The notes under the pieces: model-generated
Databases searched by the model: none
The model's input: only the letters and a program-made list of their open reading frames with translations
Told to the model about the DNA's origin: nothing
Made by a program: the position numbers and the translations under genes
In this document: positions 2,540-57,057 of the stretch, piece by piece
Numbering within the stretch: the stretch's first letter is position 1
Layout: the number at the start of each line of letters is the position of its first letter
Assembly: GCF_044647545.1 (NCBI RefSeq)
Contig: NZ_CP172818.1
From: Escherichia coli
GTDB taxonomy: Bacteria; Pseudomonadota; Gammaproteobacteria; Enterobacterales; Enterobacteriaceae
DNA length: 64,000 nucleotides
Strand: one strand, 5' to 3'

Positions 2540-3235
2540 TCAGCCCGCGGGTGAAAACGCATCTATCACCTTGTGATCGACACCTTCATTCTCCCCCGCC
2601 AGTTCGGCACTGAGCTTCGCCATAAACTCGACTAAAAATTGCGCGTTGTGCTGCGCCAGCTGCTTGCCTCTTGCGGTTTGCATGGTTTGCGGTAATTTCA
2701 GTAACTTTGTCTGGAAATGATCCAGCGCGTAGCGTTTATCATCAAGCGGGCGATGCTGTGCGAACGGATCTTCGCCATCAAACAGCGCCACGCCCAATGC
2801 CCCTGAAACGGCAAACACGCGCGCCAGGCCAATCGCCCCCAGGGCTTCCAGCCGATCCGCATCCTGGACGATTTTAGCTTCCGTTGTTAAGGGGGCGATT
2901 TGCGCGCTGAAACTGTGAGCGGCAATGGCATGACAAACGGCCTCAATTTTCTCCGCCGGAAATTGCACGAACTCTTCACGGAGCAGGCGACGCGTCTCTT
3001 CTGCCGCCAGGATTGAAGAACGCTGCCGTTGCGGATGATTTTTCGCCAGGCTCACAATATCGTGAAAATAACAGGCGGTTAAAATCACCAGCATATCGAC
3101 GTCATCATCTGCCGCCAGCTTCTGTGCCGTAGCCCAGACGCGGCGAAAATGACACACGTCATGGGCCGCGTCCTGGTGCTGATGATGGTTTTTCAACCAG
3201 TTTTCGAACTCTGCCTGCCAGTGTTGTAAGTCCAT
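2540..3235 (-). CDS. yedJ: HD-domain phosphohydrolase
   Basis: 231-aa ORF with HD motif region (CYFHDIV); position matches yedJ. Confidence 0.7.
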
Positions 3236-3274
3236 ACGCGCTCCGTTGCCAAAGAGTCGCCACCTTAGCAGTTT

Positions 3275-3658
3275 TTATTCATAGCGTCTGCTACGTGCGG
3301 GACGAGGTCGGGTGTACCAGGCAATGCTGCCTAACAATGCCCCGACCAGAGCCATAAATAAAAATCCGACCAGTGCCCCTAACCACTTTCCCGCGGTAGA
3401 GCCTAAATCGCTTTCAAATCCCGACACGGGGGCATCGGGGATCCGGCTCATCACCCAGATGTAACGCGCCATTGCCCAGACGAAATAGCCACACCATGTA
3501 TAGAAAGCCCACAAAGCCAGTTTGCCACCAGGGCTGCGAGAGAGTCTCTCTTCCATCTTTGTCGAACCGTATTCCATTTTGAGATAACCCGGAAAATTCA
3601 GACTTAGTACTATTATGTGATAAAAATCACATTTTTCCACATTGAATGAGCCAGTCAA
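3275..3658 (-). CDS. yedR: Small inner-membrane protein; start codon uncertain (internal MEYGSTK start possible)
   Basis: 127-aa ORF with two hydrophobic segments; position matches yedR. Confidence 0.5.
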   Translation of the reverse strand: MTGSFNVEKCDFYHIIVLSLNFPGYLKMEYGSTKMEERLSRSPGGKLALWAFYTWCGYFVWAMARYIWVMSRIPDAPVSGFESDLGSTAGKWLGALVGFLFMALVGALLGSIAWYTRPRPARSRRYE

Positions 3659-3870
3659 GACTCAATCATTTTTTGAACAAATAGATAATTTTTGCGCAAC
3701 GGCAGTGAATACAAGAAAAATCGTTTTGAGCGATTTTATTTATCTTTGATATCGGCTTTATTAATTCATTCAATCAATATATTAGCACTGATTACAATTA
3801 TACCTTTTTATTATTCTGTGTCATGATGCCTCCGTTATTAGCCTTTTATCGTCTTGTTTATATTTTTTGG

Positions 3871-3896
3871 GCCGGCATGATGCCGGCTTTTTTTTA
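3871..3896 (+). terminator. Orphan intrinsic-terminator-like hairpin (GCCGGCAT-GA-TGCCGGC plus T8)
   Basis: Perfect 7-bp GC stem followed by T-run on plus strand; no plus-strand gene upstream. Confidence 0.4.
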
Positions 3897-4054
3897 TGCC
3901 TTCATTAATGTGCGCGTGATCACACCAGCCGTTTAGCGCAACGATCATTGATACTCCCTATCTTTCAGTTCAACTCATAACTTATTGATATACATTTATA
4001 ATCTTCATGAATGTTTATATTCAGAATTCATAATCCTGAATTATATTAAATAGA

Positions 4055-4105
4055 TTAGAAACATTTTGAAATCTTTTAAATACATTTGTTACATGTAATC
4101 CTTAA
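4055..4105 (+). promoter_or_regulatory. OmpR-box-like repeats in porin promoter region
   Basis: gaaacattttgaaatc / tacatttgttacatgt resemble the ompC/ompF OmpR-binding TTTACATTTTGAAACAT motifs; about 100-150 bp upstream of porin start. Confidence 0.3.
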
Positions 4106-4206
4106 AATAAAATGAACTTCATAGAATAGTATCCAAATGTGCTTTTTTTTGGATAACGGCACTTATTGATATATTCATGAAGATTATAATCACAAGGGAA
4201 TACATA

Positions 4207-5322
4207 ATGAAAAGAAAAGTTCTGGCAATGCTGGTCCCGGCGTTATTAGTTGCTGGCGCAGCAAATGCGGCTGAAATTTATAATAAAGATGGCAATAAAG
4301 TTGATTTCTACGGCAAGATGGTTGGCGAACGCATCTGGTCAAATACTGATGATAATAACAGCGAAAACGAAGATACCTCCTATGCTCGTTTCGGTGTTAA
4401 AGGTGAAACCCAAATCACCAGCGAACTGACTGGTTTTGGTCAGTTTGAATACAACCTCGACGCCAGCAAGCCCGAAGGTGAAAACCAGGAAAAAACCCGT
4501 TTAACCTTCGCCGGTTTGAAATATAACGAGTTAGGATCATTTGACTATGGCCGTAACTACGGTGTTGCTTATGATGCCGCAGCTTATACCGATATGTTAG
4601 TTGAATGGGGTGGCGATTCCTGGGCTTCCGCTGACAACTTCATGAATGGTCGTACCAACGGTGTTGCAACCTACCGTAACTATGATTTCTTTGGCCTGGT
4701 TGATGGTCTTGATTTTGCGATTCAGTACCAAGGCAAAAACAGCAACCGTAGCACTAAGAAACAAAATGGTGACGGCTATGCGTTGTCTGTAGACTATAAC
4801 ATCAATGGTTTTGGTATCGTTGGTGCATATAGCAAATCTGATCGCACCAACGATCAAGTTGCCGATGGAAACGGTTCAAATGCTGAACTGTGGTCATTGG
4901 CTGCAAAGTATGACGCGAACAATGTCTACGCAGCTGTAATGTACGGCGAAACTCGTAATATGACTCCGGGTTCTATTGATACAGGTGTTGCCGATCGAGA
5001 AGGCAATACAATAATGCGTGATCAACTTATCAATGAAACCCAGAACTTTGAAGCGGTTGTTCAGTATCAATTCGACTTTGGTCTGCGTCCGTCCTTAGGT
5101 TATGTGTACTCTAAAGGTAAAGATATCAAAGGGGTACCTGGACATAGATATGTTGACGCTGACCGTGTGAACTACATTGAAGTTGGTACCTGGTACTACT
5201 TTAATAAGAACATGAACGTTTATACTGCATACAAATTCAACATGCTGGATAAAGATGACGCCGCCATTACTGGCGCAGCAGCTGATGACCAGTTTGCAGT
5301 TGGTATCGTCTACCAGTTCTAA
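4207..5322 (+). CDS. yedS: OmpC-family general porin (intact here)
   Basis: ORF with signal peptide [31 protein letters not shown] start of mature porin, C-terminal ...VGIVYQF; track ORF starts 30 nt upstream. Confidence 0.8.
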
Positions 5323-5365
5323 TCAGCCAACTCGCTGCGGCGTGTTACTGTAAAACTTAACACTA

Positions 5366-5402
5366 GCCTGAGTTCGTCCCTCATCGAACTCAGGCTTTTT
5401 TA
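5366..5402 (+). terminator. Rho-independent terminator downstream of porin gene
   Basis: GCCTGAGTTCG-tccctca-CGAACTCAGGC perfect 11-bp stem followed by TTTTTTATT. Confidence 0.7.
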
Positions 5403-30770: not shown

Positions 30771-30846
30771 TCCTCTGTAGTTCAGTCGGTAGAACGGCGG
30801 ACTGTTAATCCGTATGTCACTGGTTCGAGTCCAGTCAGAGGAGCCA
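30771..30846 (+). tRNA. asnV: tRNA-Asn (GUU), canonical
   Basis: Exact 76-nt match to asnT sequence. Confidence 0.9.
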
Positions 30847-38609: not shown

Positions 38610-38818
38610 TAGAATAAAACGATCAATATCTATTTTATCGATCGTTTATATCGATCGATAAGCTAATAATAACCTTTGTCAGTAACATGCACAGATACGT
38701 ACAGAAAGACATTCAGGGAACAACAGAACCACAATTCAGAAACTCCCACAGCCGGACCTCCGGCACTGTAACCCTTTACCTGCCGGTATCCACGTTTGTG
38801 GGTACCGGCTTTTTTATT
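38610..38818 (+). ncRNA. isrC: Small RNA IsrC region (5' leader upstream of flu); boundaries approximate
   Basis: Position between yeeP and flu; ends at intrinsic terminator CCGGTATCCAC-gttt-GTGGGTACCGG plus T6 (38780..38818). Confidence 0.4.
38621..38656 (+). promoter_or_regulatory. Three GATC sites (Dam/OxyR phase-variation switch of Ag43)
   Basis: GATC at 38621, 38640 and 38653 within aacGATCaatatctattttatcGATCgtttatatcGATCgataag, about 200 bp upstream of flu. Confidence 0.75.
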
Positions 38819-38842
38819 CACCCTCAATCTAAGGAAAAGCTG

Positions 38843-54377: not shown

Positions 54378-54524
54378 GGTCATTCTCCTTTACGGTGATA
54401 ACCGTCGCGTAAGCAAAAAATTGCCCCATTTTTTTGGATTCCTCAGCGACAACAACTGTCGATTTTTAGTAAATATCTATCCGGTACGAAGCCCGGCCTC
54501 TTGGTATGAATGATTGGTTTGAAG

Positions 54525-54561
54525 CAAAAAATAACCGACGCTGATGAAACGTCGGTTTTTA
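54525..54561. terminator. Bidirectional terminator-like hairpin between plaP and yeeY
   Basis: A-run, ACCGACG-ctgatgaa-CGTCGGT, T-run. Confidence 0.5.
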
Positions 54562-54643
54562 GTCATTTTTTGACAGCGGCGCATTGTGCCTAAATGGGGG
54601 GGAAATGACAAGAGAATGAGAGGCTTGTCATAATAATTTTTCT

Positions 54644-56861: not shown

Positions 56862-56912
56862 ATGACACGCGTTCAATTTAAACACCACCATCATCACCAT
56901 CATCCTGACTAG
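56862..56912 (+). CDS. hisL: his operon leader peptide (7 consecutive His codons)
   Basis: ATG ACA CGC GTT CAA TTT AAA CAC CAC CAT CAT CAC CAT CAT CCT GAC TAG = MTRVQFKHHHHHHHPD. Confidence 0.9.
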   Translation: MTRVQFKHHHHHHHPD

Positions 56913-56976
56913 TCTTTCAGGCGATGTGTGCTGGAAGACATTCAGATCTTCCAGTGGTGCATGAACGCATGAGAAA

Positions 56977-57010
56977 GCCCCCGGAAGATCACCTTCCGGG
57001 GGCTTTTTTA
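56977..57010 (+). terminator. his attenuator terminator
   Basis: GCCCCCGGAAG-atcacc-TTCCGGGGGC followed by TTTTTTATT. Confidence 0.85.
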
Positions 57011-57057
57011 TTGCGCGGTTGATAACGGTTCAGACAGGTTTAAAGAGGAATAACAAA

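Follow-up and report, generated by a model that had tools for sequence, protein, structure and literature searches.

The window, a stretch of 64,000 nucleotides of Escherichia coli (contig NZ_CP172818.1, assembly GCF_044647545.1), contains in order yedA, vsr, dcm, yedJ, drpB (yedR), a 650-bp AT-rich intergenic region, a yedS-type porin gene, hchA and hprS. The annotated genes upstream of the intergenic region, from vsr to drpB, are all on the minus strand, and the sequence-only reading was right, as far as protein genes go, that no plus-strand gene precedes the terminator discussed below. The yedS-type porin gene (4207-5322, +) is intact and encodes 371 aa as annotated by PGAP. Just past its stop codon lies a terminator-like hairpin (5365-5396, +; 12 pairs, 7 of them G-C, T-rich tail), which is presumably the yedS terminator. 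Between Escherichia species the porin is 53-64% identical at the protein level versus 93-97% for the flanking DrpB and 92-97% for HchA, a sequence divergence that marks it as a probable hypervariable surface protein. Aside from the small RNA described in the next section, the following RNA features of the window scored above their Rfam gathering scores, and four of the five tRNA genes did so with identical scores.

12734-12820 (-), tRNA gene
13812-13884 (+), tRNA gene
26535-26607 (-), tRNA gene
28356-28428 (+), tRNA gene
30771-30843 (+), tRNA gene
38619-38822 (+), IS102 RNA
54524-54598 (-), STnc240
56888-57011 (+), histidine operon leader

The small RNA gene between drpB and yedS

An Rfam scan of 3200-4400 gave one strong match, to RF01401 (rseX Hfq binding RNA) at 3805-3894 on the plus strand, with 99 bits against a gathering score of 50, an E value of 3.6e-14 and model positions 1-94 of 94 covered. 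It was recovered again by a whole-window scan at gathering thresholds. In the RefSeq record of MG1655, the ncRNA rseX (b4603, 2033649-2033739, +) is flanked by drpB and the yedS pseudogene; aligned to the window it falls at 3805-3895, and 90 of 91 nucleotides are identical. The single difference is a C at 3830 here and a T (U) in K-12, by which the 5' hairpin loop reads GCCUCC and GCUUCC, respectively. The two have their ends, -10 hexamer, terminator and drpB (yedR)/yedS neighbours in common, and RseX of K-12 (b4603, RF01401) is the same gene as that of the window, the neighbouring yedS being intact here and a pseudogene there. PMC7648144 likewise maps the locus as yedS-rseX-drpB-yedJ, and according to it rseX is an sRNA of 91 nt by which OmpA and OmpC are downregulated. 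We are all but certain that window 3805-3895 (+) is the RseX gene, the known 91-nt trans-acting sRNA of Escherichia and close relatives; it probably forms its own transcription unit between drpB (yedR) and yedS. Its parts and the overlapping open reading frame (ORF) are as follows.

3793-3798 (+), putative sigma-70 -10 hexamer TACAAT of the rseX promoter, read from the sequence and identical to MG1655
3805-3895 (+), rseX, 91-nt Hfq-dependent small regulatory RNA, from Rfam RF01401, the MG1655 b4603 alignment and drpB-rseX-yedS synteny
3818-3842 (+), weak 5' stem-loop of RseX, GUGUCAUGAU-loop-GUUAUUAGC, from the Rfam consensus structure, the minimum-free-energy fold and loop variability in 15 orthologues
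3823-3936 (+), 37-codon ORF from the ORF list, starting with ATG, translation MMPPLLAFYRLVYIFWAGMMPAFFYAFINVRVITPAV; judged non-coding
3834-3853 (+), conserved core GTTATTAGCCTTTTATCGTC, from the alignment of 15 orthologues; likely seed for the ompA/ompC initiation regions
3854-3868 (+), U-rich single-stranded stretch UUGUUUAUAUUUUUU just 5' of the terminator, from sequence and alignment; T-run length strain-variable
3869-3895 (+), intrinsic terminator of rseX, a 9-pair hairpin at 3869-3889 with loop UGA and a T8 tail at 3888-3895, from the terminator scan, the fold and the alignment fold

The TACAAT hexamer lies 7 nt upstream of the annotated rseX 5' end, and its activity as the rseX promoter element is putative. 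The -35 region is poor, matching at most three of six positions at 3769-3775, and owing to this weak -35 the rseX promoter is absent from the list returned by the promoter scan. For K-12, PMC8313858 relates that 5' RACE (Douchin 2006) speaks for a sigma-70 promoter and for a primary transcript. The scan's list does include a near-consensus sigma-70-like site on the minus strand at 3797-3824 (ATGACA, 16-nt spacer, TATAAT, 11 of 12 positions), which overlaps the rseX -10 hexamer, transcription start and 5' end. Its -35 element corresponds to the plus-strand TGTCAT at 3819-3824, invariant in all 15 rseX orthologues. The drpB promoter is a different one, mapped in PMC7648144 to the interval from the old GTG-1 to ATG-22 (about 3640-3577). 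Judging by its sequence, it could be a divergent promoter competing with rseX transcription.

The terminator hairpin is GGGCCGGCA-UGA-UGCCGGCUU at 3869-3889. Its core stem pairs GCCGGCA (3871-3877) with UGCCGGC (3881-3887) around the loop UGA (3878-3880), and two G-U pairs lengthen the stem. The terminator scan reports nine pairs, six of them G-C, a loop of three and a T-rich tail, and the hairpin alone folds at -14.6 kcal/mol (RNA fold, centroid structure). Hence, the strong plus-strand intrinsic terminator with T8 that had been noticed earlier is confirmed; it had been written as GCCGGCAT-GA-TGCCGGC, which implies a 2-nt loop where the loop has 3 nt, a trivial difference. None of the 15 sequences departs from the six inner terminator pairs (columns 76-81) of the alignment fold, and at columns 75/91 Citrobacter has A-U in place of G-C. 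Weak Rfam matches over the terminator (STnc430 on the minus strand, RyhB, Esr41, suhB/mmgR) were far below their gathering scores and were discarded as generic matches to a hairpin plus U tail. The terminator is the only robust structure in the RNA: the whole-RNA fold is no more stable than shuffles (z -1.13), and the 5' stem-loop is weak, one orthologue breaking a pair. Both T-runs of rseX vary in length across strains and species, that before the hairpin at 3863-3868 and the tail at 3888-3895, which has 6 to 8 T. A U-rich stretch before the terminator serves as the Hfq-binding module in Hfq-binding sRNAs. The window carries this 3' module in full (U-rich stretch, hairpin and U8), and by analogy the stretch at 3854-3868 is expected to be the Hfq-binding module of RseX.

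Targets and silencing of RseX

The identity, boundaries, synteny, conservation pattern, ORF non-conservation and in-silico pairing were obtained in this analysis; the literature is the source for Hfq dependence, the 5' end, H-NS silencing and repression of ompA, ompC, fimB and ihfB, all of which pertain to K-12, not to the window strain. A sigma-70 promoter and a Rho-independent terminator led to the prediction of the gene in 2002; its isolation followed in 2006, when in multicopy it suppressed the essentiality of the RseP protease (PMC8313858). That the 91-nt RseX represses ompA and ompC in an Hfq-dependent manner in K-12 is credited to Douchin 2006 in the passages of PMC8313858 on that work. 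The same paper reports that RseX binds and represses fimB and ihfB, and that it is silenced by H-NS/StpA. Specifically, native RseX is undetectable in the wild type, and on northern blots an hns deletion reveals RseX of ~91 nt together with a ~75-nt form, the RNA being stronger in hns stpA mutants.

We paired RseX nucleotides 14-50 with positions -35 to +12 of K-12 ompA and ompC using RNAduplex and 500 shuffles. These predictions are in silico only and ignore accessibility and Hfq. The predicted duplex with ompA has -24.2 kcal/mol (z -2.74, 1.2% of shuffles as good) and that with ompC -22.0 kcal/mol (z -2.78, 0.4% of shuffles as good), each spanning the Shine-Dalgarno region. The predicted pairing agrees with the published model. 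This local test replaced a whole-length RNAduplex run of RseX against 150-190-nt 5' UTRs, which had given long, implausible duplexes (z -1.3 to +0.6). The K-12 allele pairs with ompA and ompC 2.1-2.7 kcal/mol more weakly than the window allele, the C at 3830 creating a better predicted anti-Shine-Dalgarno motif than the U of K-12. The yedS initiation region pairs with RseX no better than shuffles (RNAduplex, z +0.85 for the window allele and +0.53 for that of K-12), and on this result a cis-linked sRNA-porin pair of RseX and the adjacent yedS was rejected.

These data and the K-12 literature are consistent with the following mechanism. The weak sigma-70 promoter (-10 TACAAT, 3793-3798) would start the RseX transcript, and the seemingly orphan hairpin with U8 would end it. 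The usual Hfq-binding 3' module would consist of the U tail and the U-rich stretch preceding the hairpin, and the conserved core GUUAUUAGCCUUUUAUCGUC, together with the variable loop next to it, would pair with the ribosome-binding regions of ompA and ompC mRNA, blocking translation and promoting decay; fimB and ihfB would be repressed in the same manner. In wild-type cells, silencing of rseX by H-NS/StpA would leave the RNA nearly undetectable. The overlapping 37-codon ORF would be a by-product of the U-rich sequence and not a gene. MicA, RybB, MicC and MicF resemble RseX in being short primary transcripts with a single-stranded seed, a U-rich stretch and an intrinsic terminator, and in pairing at the initiation regions of omp mRNAs (PMC8313858 and general knowledge). 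They have no sequence relation to RseX and belong to different Rfam families. Unlike these porin-repressing sRNAs, RseX is not controlled by sigma-E or OmpR, and is silenced by H-NS/StpA (PMC8313858).

Conservation of rseX and of the overlapping reading frame

Of 5426 complete E. coli genomes, 4908 have the region, rseX being absent from about 10%, which agrees with the listing of rseX among the Hfq-associated sRNAs that vary within E. coli/Shigella (PMC3318445). Species-representative genomes were scanned for a pattern that takes in both core and hairpin. Seven true loci were found, in E. albertii, E. whittamii, two Escherichia sp., two divergent E. coli and Citrobacter amalonaticus; an eighth, in a Granulosicoccaceae MAG (L005), was a chance pattern match and was discarded. 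RseX has been reported in Salmonella (PMC3632133). No Salmonella locus in the species-representative scan fits the exact core-plus-hairpin pattern, and Salmonella RseX was left out of the comparison. All seven loci score above the RF01401 gathering score (70.9-95.2 bits) with unchanged ends; a yedS-like porin gene adjoins rseX in each, and drpB is on the other side in all six with enough fetched sequence. Ten E. coli genomes, sampled over the identity range, were added to the ortholog set.

Identity to the window is 0.76-0.91 within the sRNA versus 0.33-0.72 in the 90 nt upstream. The core at 3834-3853 has one substitution among 15 orthologues (3835 T to A in E. coli SCPM), and columns 3836-3853 (TATTAGCCTTTTATCGTC) are invariant in all 15 aligned sequences, Citrobacter included. 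The 5' loop (about 3828-3833) is variable, reading GCCUCC, GCUUCC, AACCGC or others by lineage, and given these differences the strength of RseX on its targets may differ across lineages. Downstream of the terminator, the 60 nt at 3896-3955 (TATGCCTTCATTAATGTGCGC..GATCACAC..ATCATTGAT) are 0.70-0.93 identical among Escherichia versus 0.52-0.72 (outside K-12) for the 90 nt upstream of rseX; they may belong to the yedS regulatory region.

The sequence-only reading had put an ATG at about 3822 and proposed an unannotated small membrane protein with a weak ribosome-binding site. The 37-codon ORF, its translation and its passage through the hairpin were as described, with the start one base further on, at 3823 and within the 5' stem. 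The sRNA ends at 3895 and the stop codon (3934-3936) comes 39-41 nt later, so the terminated RNA would be a non-stop message of about 24 codons. As to the ribosome-binding site, no GGAG-like Shine-Dalgarno is present in the 14 bases before the ATG (tattattctgtgtc). The 37-codon ORF does not hold start, ribosome-binding site and stop together within the transcript. Nor is its length unusual: the first 8 kb are overlapped by 84 ORFs of 30 aa or more, and the drpB-yedS intergenic region accounts for five of these. T makes up 41% of the ORF and 51% of its second codon positions, and this T-rich composition is why the translation is hydrophobic. Pfam has no match to the product, and NCBIfam only a compositional one of 14.6 bits against a cutoff of 569. 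The supplement of a ribosome-profiling study of small ORFs contains none at the K-12 coordinates, which is weak evidence as rseX is silent in the wild type.

Single-base indels in the T-runs put the ORF out of frame, and across 19 orthologous loci it is 18, 27, 31, 36, 37, 39, 42 or more than 46 aa long, with unrelated C-termini. Four of the 19 loci lack the first ATG, three E. coli strains having ATC there and Citrobacter ATT. Variable columns in codons 1-15 are distributed 6:4:6 over the three codon positions; there is no third-position bias and hence no synonymous-biased substitution, and the ORF conservation that had been suggested as a check across enterobacteria did not materialize in these orthologues. 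Codons 6-10 are invariant even at third positions, and the Citrobacter flanks fall to 33-37% identity. This pattern of invariant codons amid diverged flanks indicates constraint at the nucleotide rather than the amino-acid level. Three differences from K-12 fall within the ORF and all change the product (P3L, V32L, stop to W). Judged by the alignments, conservation tracks the RNA, that is seed and terminator, and not the peptide. A type I toxin, with a hydrophobic peptide and an antisense RNA, was also considered and rejected: conservation of the ORF is lacking, and the one minus-strand promoter-like site nearby is directed away from the ORF.

Two other explanations of the locus were weighed. 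RseX might have a dual function like SgrS/SgrT and also encode a small hydrophobic single-helix membrane peptide, of 37 aa here. An ATG-initiated ORF with a hydrophobic translation is indeed present, its first ~15 codons, M(M/I)xxLLAFYRLVYIF, look conserved, and four lineages with one T fewer carry an 18-codon version that ends at the terminator-loop UGA. The AUG buried in the 5' stem, the stop beyond the sRNA end, the missing Shine-Dalgarno, the frame, length and start codon that are unstable over the 19 loci, the 6:4:6 distribution, the K-12 differences and the lack of a family match speak against such a peptide. SgrS/SgrT and AzuCR/IsrB, like RseX, have a short ORF overlapping an Hfq-dependent sRNA; their ORFs are conserved, have a ribosome-binding site and lie inside the transcript, whereas the RseX ORF has none of the three properties. 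The ortholog comparison largely refutes the peptide, and we consider it very improbable. The shorter version merits a separate word. Found in E. whittamii, Escherichia sp. E1V33, Escherichia sp. MOD1-EC7003 and E. coli E69, it reads M-I-x-x-LLAFYRLVY(I/V)F(G/E)PA and lies wholly within the sRNA, from the AUG in the 5' stem to the UGA of the terminator loop; in E. coli, a T-run slip would turn it into a read-through frame. That RseX acts in some lineages as a very short mRNA, translated via this ORF when H-NS silencing lifts, is a long shot. If true, RseX would be a dual-function sRNA with its coding capacity switched by homopolymer length.

The other explanation is that no transcript belongs to the hairpin, which would be either a terminator, stray or bidirectional, or left over from horizontally acquired DNA. 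It draws on an RNA undetectable in the wild type (PMC8313858), on an AT-rich and H-NS-bound region, on the absence of rseX from about 10% of complete E. coli genomes, and on its being counted among variable sRNAs (PMC3318445). The 91-nt unit, however, is conserved as a block in Escherichia species and Citrobacter while its flanks diverge, and for K-12 PMC8313858 reports the transcript on northern blots of hns mutants, with its 5' ends mapped and targets validated. Read on the minus strand, the hairpin leads into CCAAAAAATAT, which lacks a U tract, and there is no minus-strand gene converging on it. A terminator without a transcript has next to no probability in view of this evidence. The drpB-yedS locus is best explained by rseX, an already-known and ordinary sRNA gene that PGAP leaves unannotated.

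Annotation of rseX

All 11 E. coli genomes with RefSeq/PGAP annotation in the set (loci L002 and L011-L020) carry rseX, and none has an rseX feature. Even FDAARGOS_497, 100% identical to the 651-base query (window 3560-4210), has a PGAP record without it. Among the E. coli records compared, only the curated MG1655 record annotates the gene. For K-12, rseX is also in EcoCyc. The terminator looked orphan because PGAP-annotated records have no feature at rseX. The small RNA that the sequence-only reading had offered as an alternative to a peptide was thus the correct choice, and its orphan or new status was not, rseX being annotated in MG1655, curated in Rfam and experimentally studied. As a discovery the finding carries little weight: the gene, predicted in 2002, received its name and characterisation in 2006 and is present in RefSeq for K-12 and in Rfam. 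The practical point is annotation, as the PGAP omission means that sequence-only readers will go on finding rseX anew as an "orphan terminator". The rseX comparison is, moreover, a clean example of RNA-level conservation mimicking a conserved N-terminal peptide.
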